A stretch of DNA of 64,000 bases from Candidatus Eremiobacteria bacterium (lineage in GTDB: Bacteria; Vulcanimicrobiota; Vulcanimicrobiia; Vulcanimicrobiales; Vulcanimicrobiaceae), in the NCBI GenBank assembly GCA_963737065.1, contig CAVTRC010000001.1:2048001-2112000 (forward strand). Direction: 5' to 3'. Below, one piece after another: positions 33,001 through 54,000 of this stretch. The position numbers were made by a program. How positions within the stretch are numbered: position 1 is the stretch's first letter; each line of letters starts with the position of its first letter.

Positions 33001-36000
33001 TGCGCTATCCGGGGTCGCCGAGCCTCGCCGAACCGTAACCATTTTTACAAGACACCTGGCCCGGGTTCGGTTTACGATCGGTTCATGAATATGACGCAAA
33101 GGCAACCGCTTCAATCGATCTATCCAACCGTTCGCTACGACGACGCTCGCGGCGCAATCGACTGGCTCACGTCTTGTCTCGGCTTCAGCGAACAGGTCGT
33201 CTATCCGGGTGAAGGCGTGACGATCGCCCACGCACAGTTGGCGCTGGGCGGAAATCTCATCATGTTGGGCAGCACGAAAGACGACCGCTTCGGCGTTTAC
33301 ATTGCGCTCGATACTCCGGAGGAGGTCGATGCGCATTACGCGCGCGCGAAGGCAGCCGGTGCGCAGATCGTTCGGGATCTCTGCGACACCGAGTACGGAT
33401 CGCGTGAATTCGGCGTACGCGATCCCGAGGGCCACCTCTGGAGTTTCGGAACGTACCGTCCGCAGGCAGGCGAAACAACGCCGTAACGCCCGCGTCAATC
33501 GTCGCTCACGCCTGCTCCGTATCGTGACCGCATGGATACGGATTTGCTGCAAACGGCCGCGAGCGGAATGGACGCGCAGCGCGCAGCGCTCGATGTCTAT
33601 GCGCGAAACGTTGCCGCCGCTGAAGCGGCCGGACGCGACGGGCACTTCGAGCGCCTCGTTCCTCAGTTCGAATTGCGCGATGACGACGACGGAACGACCG
33701 TCGAATTCACGGGTGCGCAAACGGATCGCGGAAAGAGCGTGGACATCGTGACCGAGATGATCGCGGTAATGAACGCGTCGCGCGCCTATGAAGCCGACGC
33801 ATCACTCTTCGACGTCGGCAAAACGCTGGCACAACGGACGATCGATATGGGGCGGCTGCAATGAAGGTGGAATTGCTCCAGCCCGACGTTTCCCCGGCGC
33901 CCGCGGCAAGCGCAGCGAGCGGCTCCGCGTTTTCGCGAGCGTTGGACGGCGTCGGGGCGTTGCTCGACGGCGCCAACGCTGCAGAGGACGCTTTCGCGAA
34001 CCGGGTTGGGTCGTTGCAACGCGCGGTGTACGAACGCGCGCGCGCCGATGTCGCATTGTCTGTTGCAACGGCAGCCGCTCAGCGTAGCGCGCAGGCCCTC
34101 ACGTCGATCCTCAACATGCCGATTTGACCATGTCGCTCGATTCATTTCTGGCTCGTGTCGCGTCGCTGCCCCAGCGGGTGAAGGCCGCCGCGATCGCGGT
34201 TGGCGCGTGTGCAATCGTCATCGGGATCGTCGTCGGCATTGTAGCGAACGCTCCGCGAACGCCGCTCTTCGCGCAGCCGCTGCATCCCGACCAGCTCGCG
34301 GAGGTCGAGGATCGTTTGGCACAGTGGAACGTCGCGTTCACGCCCAGCGGTGAAAATGTCGTCGTCGATGCCGGCCGCCGGAACGACATACTCTTGCGCT
34401 TGTCGCTTGCCGGTGTGCCGCACGCGCACGTTGCAACGACCGGCGAAGCGCTCGCGAACGTCGGTGTTCTGACCCCGCAAGCGGTCGTTGAGGCGCAAAC
34501 GCGCAGCGGCCTTGCCGGCGAAATCGAACTTGCGTTACGCAGCATCAACGGCGTGGACGAGGCGCGCGTCATCATTGCACCGGGTAAACTCGCGCAATTT
34601 GCTGACCAAGGTTCAGCCGATGCCTCGGCGAGCGTGCGCCTTCAACTGCATCCTGGCGTTCGTCTCTCGCGCGCGTCGATCGCCGGAATTCGCTCGTTTG
34701 TCGCAGCCAGCGTTACGGGCCTCGATCCGTCTCATGTCACGATTCTCGACGATCGCGGCGTCGCGCTGAGCGCGGACGCCGGTACTATCGATGACGGAAG
34801 CGTGCTCCAGACATCGCTACAAACGGCGCTCGATGACGCGCTCGGGGCCGGTGTCGCAATTGTCCGTGTCCACGCTGAATATGCCTCGGCGGAAAACGAA
34901 CAACGTGACGTGCGGCGTACTCCGCTCGGCAACACGCCGATTCAGCGCGACTCGGCGTCCGAATCGTTCGACGGTCAAGGCCGGCGGTACGAGAAGAACG
35001 ACGAGCACGACGATCGCGGAAGCGACGTGCATGAAACCGTCTCGCGCCTGCCGCGCGGTTCACTCGCGCGGATCACCACCGCTGTCTTCGTCGACGCGCA
35101 AAACAGCGTTCCCGTTGAAACGGTGAGCGCACTTTCCGCGGCGACCGTCGGGTACGATCCGCGGCGCGGCGATACGCTCACCGTTGAAGCGGTGAACTTC
35201 CATCACGCGCGCTCGCAGCCCCACGATATCTGGTTTCTGCTCTACGGCGCGCTCGTACCGTTGCTTCCGACGCTCGCGATCGTACTGGGTGTTCTCGTCG
35301 CGGGCCGGCACGCAGCGCCGCACGTTGCATCGATGACCAAGCGATATTTCGAACGTACCTCGCTTGCGCGCATCTCCTCGCGCGCGGCAGGCGTTGAACC
35401 GGCGCAACTCCGCGGCGCGCTTGTCAACGAACCGCCGCATGCTGCCGCCGCGATCATCAGTGCGTTGCCCGCTGCGACGGCGGCGGCCGTGCTCGAACTC
35501 TATCCGCCGCACGAGCGAGAAGCGATCGTGCGACGCATGCAGCGCGCGCATTCGCCGCTCGTTCCGGATGCATCCGAGATCCTCGGGCGCCATGCTTGAT
35601 CGATTTCTATCCATGCGTGAGTGGCTTGCGCGCGACGGCGAATCGCCGGCTGCCTCGGCCGACGTCGAAACGTACGAAGAACCGGCGGTTGAATCGGAAG
35701 CGTCGCCGGCGCACGCCGCAGACGACGAGATCGACGTGGCGATTGCCGAGGCCCGGCGTTTTCGTGCGTCGCTTGCCGATGCGCTCGCGATGCGAGTCGA
35801 CGAACTGATGCGCGATATCGCAAGCGAAGTGCTCGCACGCGAACTCGAGCTCGCGCCTTGCGATGTAGCGCGCATCGTTGAGCGCGCGGTGCAACGATAC
35901 GGCACCGAACCCGTATGCATTCGCGCCAATCCAACCGACGCAAACGTACTCCGGCGCAGCGATACGATCGTGATCGCGGACGATAGCTTGCGCGGCGGTG

Positions 36001-51000: not shown

Positions 51001-54000
51001 GCAACGTTCCGCGCTCGCAAGAACTTGCGGCGAACATCGCATTCATTGCTGCGGCACTGTGCGTCGCAGCAGTCTCGCCTTTGTTCAACGCTGCGGCACA
51101 GCGCGCGCTCGCGCGGGCGGCGGGCGGTATGGATGCCGTGGCCGATACGCTCGCAATGCTGGCATGCGCAGTTGCGGTTGCAGCCGGCAGTGCAGCCGCA
51201 GCCGCCGTTGCCGGCGTCATTCAGACCGGGGGTGTTACAATCGTCGCGCCATCGTTCAACGTCTCTCGTCTCGCGCCGGGCGAGGGCATCAAACGCATGT
51301 TGTCCGGTGAAACGGTAACGCACGCGGTTCGCGCGCTGTTCGCATTTGCGGTCGCCGGAGCCGCGACCGTTGCGTCGATGTGGTCGCTCTTCGGAGTCGC
51401 GCGAGAAAGTTCACATATTGACGCGGTGGCCGCGACGGCATGGAACGGTGCAGAACACGTCGTGTTTGCAGCCGCGGCCGTCGGTATGGGCTTTGCAACG
51501 ATCGAATACGCCGTCGCGCGGCGTTCGTGGCTCTCGAAGCTCAAGATGAGCCTGCATGAGCTGAAACGGGAACTGAAAGAGAACGACGGTGATCCGGCGG
51601 CGCGAGCGCGCCGGAAGGCATTGCATCGCAGCCTCATTCGCGGCGCGATCGCGAAGGTCAAAGACGCCTCGTTCGTCGTCGTGAATCCGACGCACGTTGC
51701 GGTTGCGCTCGAATACCGTCCGCCTGCCGTACCGGTGCCGGTCGTTCTCGTGCGCGCTGCAGACGAGATGGCGTTGCGCGTTCGCGCGCTCGCGGCGCAA
51801 AGCGGCATTCCGATCATCGAAAACATCGCGCTCGCGCGTGCACTTTTCGCCCAGACGCAGCCCGGCGAAGCGATACCGCATGAGTGCTACGTCGCGGTCG
51901 CGGAAATCGTCGCGTCGCTCATCCGCAGCGGAGCGTTCGAATGACGAAACTCCCTGTTTATGCTTTTGCGGCGTGTTTGCTCGCAATCGTGGCGATTTTG
52001 ATCGTGCCGCTGGCGCCCTGGCTGCTCGACGTGCTGCTCGCCATCAATGTGTTCGGTTCCGCGCTTGTGCTGTTGCTCGCCGTGACGATTGATGACCCGC
52101 TCGAGTTCTCAGCCTTTGCGCCGGCATTGCTGGTCGCGACGCTCTTCCGCCTGTCGCTCGACGTGTCGGCGACGCGGCTCATCTTGACCGATGGAGCAAC
52201 ACCGGGCGCAGTCGGTGCAATTATCCCGGCTTTCGGCGCGTTCGTCGTTCACGGGAATCTCGTCGTCGGTTTGATCGTCTTCGCCATTCTCATCACGATT
52301 CAATTCATCGTGATCGCGAGCGGATCGCAGCGAGTTGCCGAAGTCGCCGCGCGCTTCACGCTCGACGCGATGCCCGGCAAACAGATGGCGATCGATGCGG
52401 ACGTGCACGCCGGCGTGCTCGATGCCGACGGCGCGCGGCGCAAACGCGCGCTCGTGCAGCGCGAAGCCGATTTCTACGGCGCGATGGACGGCGCCGGAAA
52501 ATTTGTGAAAGGCGATGCCGTCGCTGCACTGGTCATCGTCGGCTTGAACCTTTCGGGCGGCATCGTCGTCGGCATTGCGTATCACGGAATGCCGCCGCTC
52601 GACGCACTCAACACCTACGCGTTGCTCTCCATCGGCAATGCGCTCGTGACGACGCTGCCGGCGTTTCTGATTTCGACCGCGATGGGCATGATGGTCACGC
52701 GCGTCGCTTCGGACGGCGCGCTCGGTGCCGATCTCGCCGCGCAGCTTTTCGCGCGTCCCGACGTATTGCGCAGCGCGGGTGCGCTGCTGATCGTCCTCTC
52801 GTTCGTTCCCGCATTGCCGCGGCCGGTGTTTTTCATGCTCGGCGGATGCGCGTTCGTTGCAGCGCAGCTCGCGGCGCGCAAACAACGCGCGCGCGTCCGG
52901 CAGGCGACGGCGGAAAGCGAGCGCGCAAAGCGGCAGGCGCTCCGGCGACCGGAACTTGCGCTCGGACTCGTGGGCGTGGATGCGATGTCGATCGACATCG
53001 GCTCGGAGATCGCGCACCTCCTAGTGCCGCCGCTGGCGGACGCGCTATTGGATCGTATCGGCGAAGTCCGTCGCGCGCTTGCAACGGAGATCGGTATCGT
53101 GCTTCCGGGCGTGCGGCTGCGCGACGATCTCGCGCGCGACGCACAGACGTATGCGATCCGCGTTCGCGATCGGATTGCCGGAGAAGGGCGGTTGCAGCTT
53201 GAGCGCGTCCTTGCGGTCGCCGACGTCTCGGTGCTGTCGCGCTTCGGCCTCGATGTGCAGCCGGAACCCGTCTACGGGCTTCCGTCCGCGTGGATCGATT
53301 CGGCGCAACGTACCGCGCTCGCCGATGCGGGCGCTTTAGTGTTCGATCCCATTTCGATCGTCGGATCGCATGTCGCGGAAACCGTACGGCGGTATGCAAG
53401 CGAACTCGTCGGCCGCCAAGAGCTACAGACGATGCTCGAACATCTGCGCGCAACGATGCCGGCTCTCGTTAAAGAAATCGGCACGGACGCGTTCCCACTT
53501 GGCGTATTGCACCGTGCGTACGTGTATCTGTTGCGCGAGGGCGCCTGGCCGCGCGACCCCGTCGCGCTCTTGCAGGCGATGCTCGAGGCGCCGACGCGCG
53601 ACCCACGCGAACTTGCGGAGGCGGCTCGTCGCGCGATCGTTCCCGATCTGCTGCGCCGGCGCGGTGTGAGCAAACTCGAGCCGCTCTTGCTCGACCCCGA
53701 ATACGAGCGCGAACTGACGCGAGCTTGGGTTAGCGCTACGGTTGAAATCGCTCCCGATCCCGACCGCGCGCTCTCACTGCGAGACCAAGTAGCGTCGTAT
53801 TCGGCTCGAGTACCGCGCGAGCGAGCGGCCGTCGTCTGTATGCCGCCATTGCGGCCGGTGCTCGCGGACTTCCTTATGCGGAGCGGAGTCCGGACGGAAG
53901 TATTCGCGTATGGTGAACTGCCCCCGGAGTTGCAGTTAGTTCCGGCCGGAGTGGTGAACCATGAGCCGCGGCCCTTGGCGGCATTTGTTTGACCGTCGCG

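Follow-up and report, generated by a model that had tools for sequence, protein, structure and literature searches.

A flagellin-less, flagellar-type gene cluster in Vulcanimicrobiia and its probable place in a second, phylum-wide lineage

Flagellar type III export genes that occur apart from any filament gene raise the question of what kind of apparatus they encode. Such a set lies in the window analysed here, a stretch of 64,000 nucleotides from a Candidatus Eremiobacteria genome of the class Vulcanimicrobiia (contig CAVTRC010000001.1, positions 2,048,001 to 2,112,000), and the same genome displays two FHIPEP and four Flagellin_N matches (Pfam). An earlier note had read the set as a motor-less export apparatus, a core trait specific to the class, with an origin independent of the injectisome. 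Judged from its sequences, the cluster is, with modest confidence, best explained as a flagellin-less machine that derives from a flagellar basal body and forms part of a second flagellar-type lineage present across the phylum.

Gene content and layout of the cluster

The cluster lies on the plus strand at 33532-53992, as reported, and the parts claimed as FlgC-like, FliE-like, FliF with FliG_M, FliH, FliI, SLT, FliN, FliP, FliR, FlhB and FlhA were all found by Pfam. It begins with a FlgC-like proximal rod protein of 110 aa (33532-33864; Flg_bbr_C 4.5e-6, Flg_bb_rod 1.3e-4; NCBIfam FlgC 8.5e-15, under cut-off) and a FliE-like protein of 88 aa (33861-34127; Pfam FliE 4.1e-4 at 20.9 bits, short of the 22.4-bit cut-off; NCBIfam fliE 2e-4), the gene of which stands between flgC and fliF, a place shared by clusters in other classes of the phylum. 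FliF, the MS-ring protein (491 aa, 34124-35599), shows YscJ_FliF (2.5e-26) and YscJ_FliF_C (1.6e-9) and is fused at its C-terminus to a FliG middle domain (FliG_M 3.4e-7, residues 426-474). It is followed by FliH (about 164 aa, 35592-36086; 1.1e-9), with the start taken from the translation because the ORF as listed, from 35364, extends too far upstream, and by a FliI/SctN-type export ATPase of 415 aa (36083-37330; ATP-synt_ab 2.6e-55, T3SS_ATPase_C), which contains the P-loop GSPGAGKST and reaches 308 bits with NCBIfam SctN and 303 bits with FliI_clade1, each under its own cut-off. The gene of an SLT lytic transglycosylase (208 aa, 37314-37940; 1.2e-29) keeps its place after fliI or fliJ in family f3 and in other-class clusters.

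Next lies an accessory gene of uncertain start (37852-39513) for a secreted or lipoprotein-like protein, in which the claimed retropepsin character is reflected by two Asp_protease_2 stretches (4.6e-21) with DSG and DTG motifs; six of eight f1 loci and f2 have it, and none was seen in four f3 loci or in other-class clusters. Three genes discussed below (39540-40100, 40105-40827 and 40824-41598) separate it from FliN (91 aa, 41595-41870; FliMN_C 3.4e-26; NCBIfam fliN 102 bits, above the cut-off of 84) and FliP (41915-42598; 5.4e-73). FliQ was confirmed by NCBIfam (89 aa, 49961-50230; fliQ 2.9e-18, under cut-off), and is followed by FliR (50230-50937; Bac_export_1 1e-28 at residues 124-347 of a long ORF with an over-extended listed start at 49867), FlhB (336 aa, 50934-51944; Bac_export_2 2.6e-73) with an NPTH autocleavage motif and 217 bits for NCBIfam SctU and 204 for FlhB, each under its own cut-off, and FlhA (684 aa, 51938-53992; FHIPEP 6e-189), which scores 580 bits with NCBIfam FlhA versus 474 with SctV, again each under its own cut-off. 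The host cluster yielded no FliO, FliJ or FlgB. With 27.6-50.7% identity between its proteins and the canonical flagellar set on contig 2, the strong divergence described before was likewise seen.

The cluster is not unbroken, as had been supposed, but split between fliP and fliQ by metF (methylenetetrahydrofolate reductase; 42608-43504, plus strand; MTHFR 1.2e-91) and by a minus-strand block of four genes (43524-49888) for an HTH regulator, a TIR-NB-ARC-TPR protein, a beta-propeller protein and a membrane protein (Pfam, PADLOC). metF occupies this place in all eight f1 loci and was not found there in f2, f3 or other classes; the four-gene insert occurs, among the eight f1 loci compared, only in G111, of the same genus. 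Away from the main cluster, at C1:1972910-1978896, the two rod genes and the sigma factor of the earlier description were located, the latter reading as FliA/WhiG-like; G011 and G016 share the conserved rod1-rod2-sigma operon.

Divergent and missing parts

Two of the parts described as lacking, FliM and the hook, have to be reconsidered. The gene at 40824-41598 is FliM-like: its product aligns with FliM of orthologous other-class clusters (hhalign probability 84%, E 7e-6, 231 columns), and its f3 ortholog carries FliMN_C. FliM of the class Vulcanimicrobiia lineage has diverged past the reach of Pfam. In the host genome a 1-nt insertion near 41320 relative to G111 shifts the frame, so that the N-terminal part is read in the frame of 40824 and the SpoA-type C-terminal part in that of 41359-41598, although this may alternatively be an assembly error.

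The previously unassigned 186-aa protein of 39540-40100 is FliK/SctP-like. It combines a conserved N-terminal helix, a disordered linker and a C-terminal alpha/beta domain with a fold resembling the FliK/SctP switch domain, and its gene occupies the fliK position. The adjacent gene (40105-40827), reported as an FlgF/G-like rod gene, does encode an FlgE/F/G-family axial protein (240 aa; Pfam LlgE_F_G_D1 1.9e-5; NCBIfam FlgEFG_subfam 1.6e-8, under cut-off), the G248 ortholog of which also matches Flg_bb_rod and Flg_bbr_C, and its position is that of the hook gene. Since these two genes stand where fliK and flgE lie in fuller clusters, the absence of a hook is not secure.

Other rotation and filament parts are missing from five flagellin-less genomes (G011, G063, G017, G006, G016). 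Each shows one FHIPEP and three Flg_bbr_C matches, as had been stated for such genomes, FlgI, MotB_plug and Pfam FliM are absent from all five, and no FliG_C or Flagellin_N match exceeds the cut-off, in agreement with the proposed loss of P ring, stator and FliG C-domain. FlgD was found neither in these five nor in two other-class genomes (0/7). Torque domain, stator, P ring, hook cap and flagellin were thus not found in genomes with only this system, where absence is defined by Pfam models, which very divergent proteins can escape as FliM did. FliG survives in class Vulcanimicrobiia only as the FliM-binding middle domain at the C-terminus of FliF; in three flagellin-less f1 genomes FliG_M exceeds the cut-off solely there, and this stretch is nearly invariant across nine f1 sequences. 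Weak Flagellin_N matches in genus g4 were rejected as flagellin, for they fall in an HlyD-like coiled coil.

It could be argued that the genes encode a fully equipped motility organelle, with a filament, a stator and torque parts that have diverged beyond recognition, as the FliM-like and FliK-like genes escaped Pfam, and other-class relatives retain FliG_C, with a weak MotB_plug match (29 bits) in G221. We regard this as quite improbable: FliG of the class is cut to its middle domain and fused to FliF, only three Flg_bbr_C proteins occur per genome, FlgD was not found, and the g4 matches lie in a coiled coil. Moreover, on the cultured V. alpinus, a flagellin-less species of the phylum, flagella were reported not to be visible and a flagellin gene to be lacking (PMC9758169); in Table S8 of its description fliN is the sole entry among five terms looked for.

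Distribution in the class and selection

Among 201 sampled class genomes, G000 included, the divergent FliF (E<=1e-5) was found in 186, though in G145, G148 and G199 only at about 1e-10, and FHIPEP likewise in 186. The proposal of a core class trait stands as to frequency and falls as to universality: FliF and FHIPEP matches are each missing from 15 genomes, some of them 96-100% complete, so that the system is dispensable in class Vulcanimicrobiia. Flagellin_N exceeds the cut-off in 72 and FliG_C in 73 of the 201 genomes. Retention without flagellin, as claimed, is evident from FHIPEP in 114 of the 129 genomes lacking a Flagellin_N match over cut-off. This speaks against an accessory set for the canonical flagellum with parts supplied or borrowed in trans, to which the presence of both systems in the host and in 72/201 class genomes might point; family f3, with the system in 31/32 genomes and both Flagellin_N and FliG_C in 0/32, and the class of G221 (FHIPEP 6/7, Flagellin_N 0/7) likewise disagree with it, and it is the least probable of the explanations considered.

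The cluster is under purifying selection. dN/dS of its genes ranges from 0.05 to 0.28 between G000 and G111 and from 0.09 to 0.32 between the flagellin-less G063 and G128 (13 genes with unsaturated dS), and in both pairs every gene compared, 16 of them in the latter, has pN far below pS. Gene order is conserved over eight f1 loci and in two f3 operons, and reading frames are intact even though FlhA is only 45-52% identical between families. That the set is the remnant of a second flagellum in decay, serving no function today, might be suspected from the stepwise loss of parts (FliO, FliJ, FlgB, and the N and C domains of FliG), the frameshift and insert in the host, the 15/201 genomes without the system and the mere FHIPEP trace (7e-6) in G080; however, conserved order, intact frames and low pN, also in the flagellin-less pair, speak against it, as does a FliM-like gene intact (259-273 aa) in all eight related loci, and we consider it very improbable. 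Given the frameshift in its FliM-like gene and the insert that interrupts it, the host copy itself may be impaired.

Related clusters in other classes and a possible function

The trait is not specific to the class. Other classes of the phylum contain orthologous clusters with less reduction, which possess FlgB, FlgC, FliE, FliF, a full FliG (N, M, C), FliH, FliI, FliJ, SLT, FliK, one FlgE/G-like protein, FliM, FliN, FliO, FliPQR, FlhB and FlhA in matching order, often with no flagellin alongside. They unite with class Vulcanimicrobiia in the FlhA tree (25 rows, SH-aLRT 100) and in a four-protein tree (15 rows, support 99); the second lineage thus runs through the whole phylum, most of which has kept it. 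As the trees show the fuller clusters to be the sister group of the reduced ones, reduction arose inside the phylum. Lack of rotation should not be extended to the whole lineage, since the fuller relatives keep FliG_C and G221 has its MotB_plug match.

An origin independent of the injectisome is favoured by gene content, which is flagellar (FlgB/C, FliE, FliO, FliK, FliG), and by trees that place the lineage apart; AU tests, however, do not reject a position beside the injectisome branch (p 0.145 and p 0.481), and the lineage may be the nearest flagellar-type neighbour of the injectisomes.

As the set has no filament gene and, in this class, no motor parts, its product is probably an export channel or a short rod that does not rotate. 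FliF would form the MS ring, and its FliG_M tail would dock the FliM-like protein and FliN, which would give FliH and FliI a static sorting platform. FliPQR, FlhB and FlhA would export FliE, FlgC, the FlgE/G-like protein and the FlgF/G-like pair encoded elsewhere with the FliA/WhiG-like sigma factor; these axial proteins may polymerise into a rod, for which the SLT enzyme would open the peptidoglycan. Finally, the FliK-like protein and the FlhB NPTH site could measure the rod and switch export to later, non-flagellin substrates.

Whether such later substrates are part of the picture separates this reading from that of a purely structural periplasmic organelle, which would export its own axial proteins only, its static rod serving as envelope anchor, spacer or sensor with no cargo. 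The latter is unlikely, yet it deserves weight: apart from the FliK-like protein, recognisable type III substrates are all axial proteins, comparison of the cluster over eight f1 loci shows no conserved gene for a chaperone or an effector-like protein, and the cluster has neither an outer-membrane channel gene nor another identified outer-membrane component. The retained FliK-like protein and FlhB NPTH site, on the other hand, suggest that export passes on to a second class of substrates, and a nonflagellated Lysobacter is reported to secrete other proteins via a remnant flagellar export system (PMC7688988). The flagellin-less basal-body machine preferred here would be a variant among partial flagellar systems without flagellin, a sort already known.

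Directly at the end of flhA, secD and secF (53961-56714, plus strand; Pfam) are candidate members of the system; they follow flhA in all six f1 loci whose sequence continues beyond that gene, and also in the f3 genomes G016 and G006.

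Gene content and order of the second cluster

The divergent flagellar-type set at 33532-53992 (plus strand) belongs to a genome of two contigs, 95% complete, in which a canonical set is also present, with a second FHIPEP gene on contig 2 and four Flagellin_N matches; the flagellins adjoin the canonical set and not the cluster. The proteins of the two sets share 27.6-50.7% identity, and all cluster proteins scored under the NCBIfam cut-offs of flagellar and Sct equivalogs alike, except for FliN, which reached 102 bits against a cut-off of 84. The cluster reported in the earlier note was found to be real, its inventory of parts needed correction in places and the interpretation attached to it was partly supported.

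Pfam and NCBIfam identified the type III gate proteins FliP, FliQ, FliR, FlhB and FlhA, the ATPase complex FliH and FliI, the MS-ring protein FliF, and FliE-like and FlgC-like proteins of the proximal rod. The cluster begins with genes for an FlgC-like protein (33532-33864; Pfam/NCBIfam, translations), a FliE-like protein (33861-34127; Pfam score under the cut-off), a FliF with a match to the FliG middle domain over its last ~65 residues (34124-35599), FliH (~35592-36086, start from the translation), FliI (36083-37330), an SLT lytic transglycosylase (37314-37940) and a protein with two retropepsin-type domains that ends at 39513, the last five recognized by Pfam. A 186-aa protein without family match (39540-40100), a 240-aa FlgE/F/G-family protein (40105-40827; Pfam/NCBIfam), a FliM-like gene, likewise without family match in the window copy (40824-41598), FliN (41595-41870), FliP (41915-42598) and metF (42608-43504; Pfam) follow. 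After four genes on the minus strand (43524-49888), the plus strand continues with FliQ (49961-50230; NCBIfam), FliR (50230-50937), FlhB with NPTH (50934-51944), FlhA (51938-53992) and secD and secF (53961-56714). Gene starts were taken from translations, several listed ORFs being over-extended at the start, as is typical in high-GC DNA; a GC3 frame plot did not discriminate between candidate starts. An FlgB upstream of 33532 was considered and discarded, the upstream ORF resembling by eye a glyoxalase-type protein. Downstream of secF, a 686-aa protein with HIRAN and DEAD/Helicase_C domains and a Cdc6-type winged helix is encoded at 56683-58743.

The earlier note had listed FliM among the missing parts, which is contradicted by the gene at 40824-41598, identified from its sequence as a divergent FliM. 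It precedes fliN, the same position as in the clusters of other classes of the phylum; a profile of seven intact orthologs aligned with three FliM of other classes over 231 columns (hhalign probability 84%, E 7.3e-6), and the ortholog from family f3 of the class matched Pfam FliMN_C at 1.3e-9. Pfam FliM itself gave no match to the gene. In all eight related loci it runs in frame through to 259-273 aa and ends in a SpoA-like domain. Conservation of the ORF listed in the window (40824-41576) is limited to the first ~163 residues, and one additional base near 41320, compared with the congener G111, shifts the SpoA-like domain to the frame of 41359-41598. Because both halves of this copy still show nonsynonymous divergence (pN) well below synonymous divergence (pS) against G111, the frameshift is either of recent date or an error of the assembly.

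The 186-aa protein at 39540-40100 is probably FliK/SctP-like, an assignment on which three lines agree, each weak alone. Its gene sits between those of SLT and the FlgE/G-like protein, exactly the slot that is held in the fuller, less reduced clusters of G213 and G248, two genomes of other classes, by a Pfam-detected FliK (Flg_hook 1e-14 and 3e-12). An AlphaFold2 model built from 41 sequences (mean pLDDT 69.8) predicted an N-terminal helix, disorder at residues 44-100 and a C-terminal alpha/beta domain of pLDDT 80-94; the best two of 350,542 PDB chains in Foldseek were the FliK C-terminal domain (E 3.4e-3) and the PscP substrate-specificity-switch domain (E 1.5e-2). The top match of the family profile among 177,635 PDB sequences was again FliK, weak at E 0.15. 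The 576 homologues are all unnamed and all lack Pfam domains, none of seven members tested matched Flg_hook/T3S4 in Pfam, and hhalign found no match between the family and the FliK-like proteins of other classes. The adjoining gene, encoding the 240-aa axial protein (40105-40827), occupies the hook-gene position, and its G248 ortholog matches Flg_bb_rod as well as Flg_bbr_C.

Gene order was the same in eight of eight loci of family f1: flgC-fliE-fliF-fliH-fliI-SLT-(protease)-FliK-like-FlgE/G-like-FliM-like-fliN-fliP-metF-fliQ-fliR-flhB-flhA, the protease gene being missing in two, both of genus g4. All eight carry metF on the same strand between fliP and fliQ, where it is absent in families f2 and f3 and in other classes. 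Family f3 possesses two operons, flgC-x-fliF-fliH-fliI-SLT and x-FlgE/G-like-FliM-like-fliN-fliP-fliQ-fliR-flhB-flhA-secD-secF. The position of secD and secF directly after flhA is common to the window, all six f1 loci with downstream DNA and the f3 genomes G016 and G006, and was not found in the clusters of other classes. Among the eight f1 loci compared, the four-gene insert is confined to the window genome and its congener G111. It encodes an ArsR/Csa3-like HTH regulator, a 903-aa TIR-NB-ARC-TPR protein (PADLOC ThsB-like TIR, 2e-8), a beta-propeller protein and a 517-aa membrane protein, and looks like a defence-type island.

Retention within the class Vulcanimicrobiia

The class sample comprised 201 genomes including that of the window. 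Its tallies take in the unpublished genomes G159, G192, G190, G176, G129, G036, G050 and G014, and the FliF tally over 401 genomes of the phylum additionally G276, G394, G288 and G338; loci, alignment rows and tree rows include none from unpublished genomes. The divergent FliF was detected at E<=1e-5 in 186 of the 201 genomes (f1 151/165, f2 3/3 and f3 31/32, the window genome not counted in its family), three of which (G145, G148, G199) match only at the level of canonical FliF, about 1e-10. FHIPEP was likewise present in 186/201. Flagellin_N and FliG_C exceeded their cut-offs in only 72/201 and 73/201 genomes, respectively, each in 0/32 of f3, and FliG_C was absent from the listed flagellin-less f1 genomes. 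Flagellin-positive genomes carry two FHIPEP genes (about 850-880 and 630-680 bits), flagellin-less genomes one. The 72 genomes with flagellin include none of the 15 that lack an FHIPEP match, so 114 of 129 flagellin-less genomes keep FHIPEP. The system can also be lost, because genomes without match include some that are 96-100% complete (G015, G049, G055).

Five flagellin-less genomes, the closed f1 genomes G011, G063 and G017 and the six-contig f3 genomes G006 and G016, were compared for further parts. Each has exactly three Flg_bbr_C proteins, namely the cluster FlgC and an adjacent pair elsewhere in the genome. Pfam FliM, FlgI and MotB_plug were found in 0/5 each, and FlgD in none of seven genomes, these five and two of other classes. 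In the three f1 genomes, FliG_M matches over the cut-off occur only in the C-terminus of FliF. The claim that the set is retained without flagellin and lacks parts that rotation requires was borne out by these genomes, which have one FHIPEP and no FlgI, MotB_plug, flagellin, FliG_C or FlgD. Downstream of the rod pair lies the gene for a sigma factor, with FliA/WhiG as its best NCBIfam match at 114.7 bits (cut-off 189.6), an arrangement kept in G011 and G016. Weak Flagellin_N matches (E about 1e-4) in 12 g4 genomes were considered as a hidden filament protein and rejected, the match being to the A/Q-rich coiled coil of an HlyD-like protein.

The cluster is under purifying selection. Between the window genome and G111, dN/dS (Nei-Gojobori) was 0.05-0.28 in 16 genes; between G063 and G128, flagellin-less members of one genus, it was 0.09-0.32 in the 13 genes with unsaturated dS, with pN < pS in 16/16 genes. 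These ratios are rough because synonymous sites are near saturation.

Several single genomes deviate from the common pattern. Possible remnants of the system occur in G139 (FliG_C at 1.8e-37, without FliF or FHIPEP match), G080 (an FHIPEP trace at 7e-6 only) and G079 (a partial FHIPEP match at 4e-118, without FliF); G045 has two copies of the divergent FliF and FlhA (contigs C62 and C18). Several genomes of genera g24 and g41 (listed: G041, G156, G132, G078, G187) have ORFs of ~430-450 aa with a FliF match limited to residues ~5-255, plus a further match at another place, which suggests that FliF was shortened or split.

Descent within the phylum and relation to the injectisome

The earlier note had regarded the system as a core trait of Vulcanimicrobiia. 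The window FliF had no match at E<=1e-40 in the 69 genomes of the families f4-f21 of other classes in the 401-genome sample. The lineage as a whole is nevertheless phylum-wide and not peculiar to Vulcanimicrobiia, orthologous fuller clusters being present in other classes. At 6e-28 to 6e-21 the window FliF matched seven genomes of other classes, each of which carries full-length FHIPEP in one or two copies. In an FlhA tree of 45 rows (IQ-TREE quick search, LG+C20 PMSF, SH-aLRT support), six FlhA of other classes formed the sister group (99) of the divergent clade of the class, which consists of f1+f2 (100) and f3 (100), together 100; the union with this sister group comprises 25 rows at 100. 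The flagellin-adjacent FlhA of G213 and G218 grouped with the canonical FlhA of the class (97). A supermatrix of FliP, FliQ, FlhB and FlhA (29 rows, 1346 columns) recovered the second lineage at 99.

The order of the fuller relatives, flgB-flgC-fliE-fliF-fliG-fliH-fliI-(fliJ)-...-fliK-(hook gene)-fliM-fliN-fliO-fliP-fliQ-fliR-flhB-flhA, corresponds to that of the Bacillus-type fla operon. The cluster of G213 contains FlgB-FlgC-FliE-FliF-FliG(N,M,C)-FliH-FliI-SLT-FliK-x-FliM-FliO-FliP-FliQ-FliR-FlhB-FlhA; that of G248 has the same content and in addition FliJ, a 277-aa FlgE/G-like gene and FliN; that of G221 reads FlgE/G-like-FliM-FliN-FliO-FliP-FliQ-FliR-FlhB-FlhA. Flagellin_N had no match in G221, G248 and G259, and within the class of G221, 6/7 genomes have FHIPEP and 0/7 Flagellin_N. 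G221 repeats the pattern of three Flg_bbr_C and also has a FliG_C gene, as carried by the fuller other-class relatives, and a 29-bit MotB_plug match. Given this nesting, parsimony indicates that it was within the phylum that FliG came to be reduced to FliG_M fused to FliF, that FliM degenerated and that FliO, FliJ and FlgB went missing from the cluster. A related-locus search with the G221 FlhA yielded only five near-identical loci and three ordinary FlhA genes at 40-44% identity. G213, G218, G221, G248 and G259 also contain many stand-alone ORFs whose match is restricted to the C-terminal cytoplasmic half of FHIPEP (profile positions ~307-656); G248 and G259 have up to 12 additional matches each, in ORFs of about 290-940 aa.

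Six SctV references (Salmonella InvA, Yersinia enterocolitica LcrD, Rhizobium, Burkholderia, an E. coli plasmid and Pantoea) formed a branch of their own at 100 in the FlhA tree, apart from the lineage, as did five Sct references in the supermatrix tree. All cluster proteins scored below the Sct equivalog cut-offs of NCBIfam, and Pfam detected no SctC secretin, SctD ring or SctF needle among the cluster ORFs. The flagellar backbone of the trees was not resolved, and placing lineage and injectisomes together on one side of a branch was not rejected by AU tests, either for FlhA (delta lnL 9.4, p 0.145) or for the supermatrix (delta lnL 0.5, p 0.481). Few flagellar references were included (Thermomicrobium, Listeria, Proteus, Vibrio, Sinorhizobium and Ralstonia, and no Myxococcales or Chlamydiae system). 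The case for an origin independent of the injectisome, as previously proposed, therefore rests on flagellar gene content and on the reduction series within the phylum, not on the trees, in which adjacency to the Sct branch is permitted.

Proposed function and comparable systems

FliG_M binds FliM, which together with FliN makes up the platform for FliH/FliI; FliK, together with the NPTH cleavage site of FlhB, switches the substrate class, and SLT-type enzymes open the peptidoglycan for the rod. From these established roles of homologues we infer that the corresponding parts of the cluster may operate alike. An ambitious reading, which we hold to be rather unlikely, is that the cluster represents a type III machine of a third kind, namely an export apparatus that is static, tipped by a rod and vertically inherited across the phylum, and that would serve neither motility nor host injection and export some cargo; it would record the change from a flagellar motor to a non-rotating secretion device from a full FliG to FliG_M fused to FliF and on to a degenerate FliM. 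Taken furthest, this reading would make the lineage the closest living flagellar-type relative of the injectisome, a placement that the AU tests do not reject (p 0.145 and p 0.481).

The conversion of the flagellum into a secretion machine is known only from its end products, and the phylum offers a graded series in living genomes. Some members have a full basal-body set without flagellin; in others the torque domain, stator-facing parts, FliO and FliJ are lost and the export gate, rod, FliM/FliN platform and probable length-control protein kept.

With the canonical flagellum the cluster shares the FliPQR-FlhB-FlhA gate, FliH/FliI, the FliF MS ring, rod proteins and FliM/FliN homologues, whereas no flagellin, FliG_C, MotB, FlgI or FlgD was found in genomes with only this system. 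Its gene content also agrees with the second, putative partial flagellar system described for Legionella micdadei, L. fallonii, L. israelensis and others (Gomez-Valero 2014, in PMC5655016), an additional region for basal body, export system and putative hook without flaA or fliD. The likeness is one of content (basal-body, export and hook-like genes without flaA/fliD). That system belongs to another phylum, and its authors do not decide between a T3SS and a second flagellum (PMC5655016). Here, in contrast, most genomes of the class keep the system as their sole flagellar-type set, FliG is cut to a FliF-fused domain, and a series of reductions can be traced across the phylum. Nonflagellated Lysobacter enzymogenes OH11 likewise retains a flagellar-type export apparatus without functional flagellin, a leftover that is reportedly expressed and exports non-flagellar proteins (PMC7688988, PMC9927559); it is, however, what has recently been left of the species' only, ordinary flagellar regulon, and no ancient paralogous lineage that evolves separately and has a reduced architecture of its own. 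The 'Myxo' non-flagellar T3SS of Myxococcales, proposed as an intermediate, motility-less form of the injectisome (Abby and Rocha 2012, PMC3459982), resembles the cluster in being derived from type III export without motility parts and without some injectisome core parts. Its vertical conservation over long times is the ground on which it is argued to be functional. For Myxococcus, a needle-less T3SS used in predation is reported as well. Yet the Myxo system falls into the injectisome clade with Sct-type components, whereas the cluster keeps FlgC, FliE, FlgF/G-like and FliN and its fuller relatives FliG, FliO and FliK; our trees are without Myxo sequences. A description of the present system was not found in the literature on Eremiobacterota/WPS-2 flagella or Eremiobacterota secretion systems, bioRxiv supplements lying outside the search.

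The cultured species of the phylum (V. alpinus) is reported to have neither flagella nor a flagellin gene and to be motile by type IV pili, and of the terms looked up in Table S8 of that source only fliN is given (PMC9758169). Because most sampled genomes of the class have the cluster as their sole flagellar-type set, purifying selection acts on it and a cultured species is reported to lack flagella and flagellin, the role of the machine could be tested directly. 'Flagellar' genes in these genomes are, as a caution for annotation, no predictor of motility.
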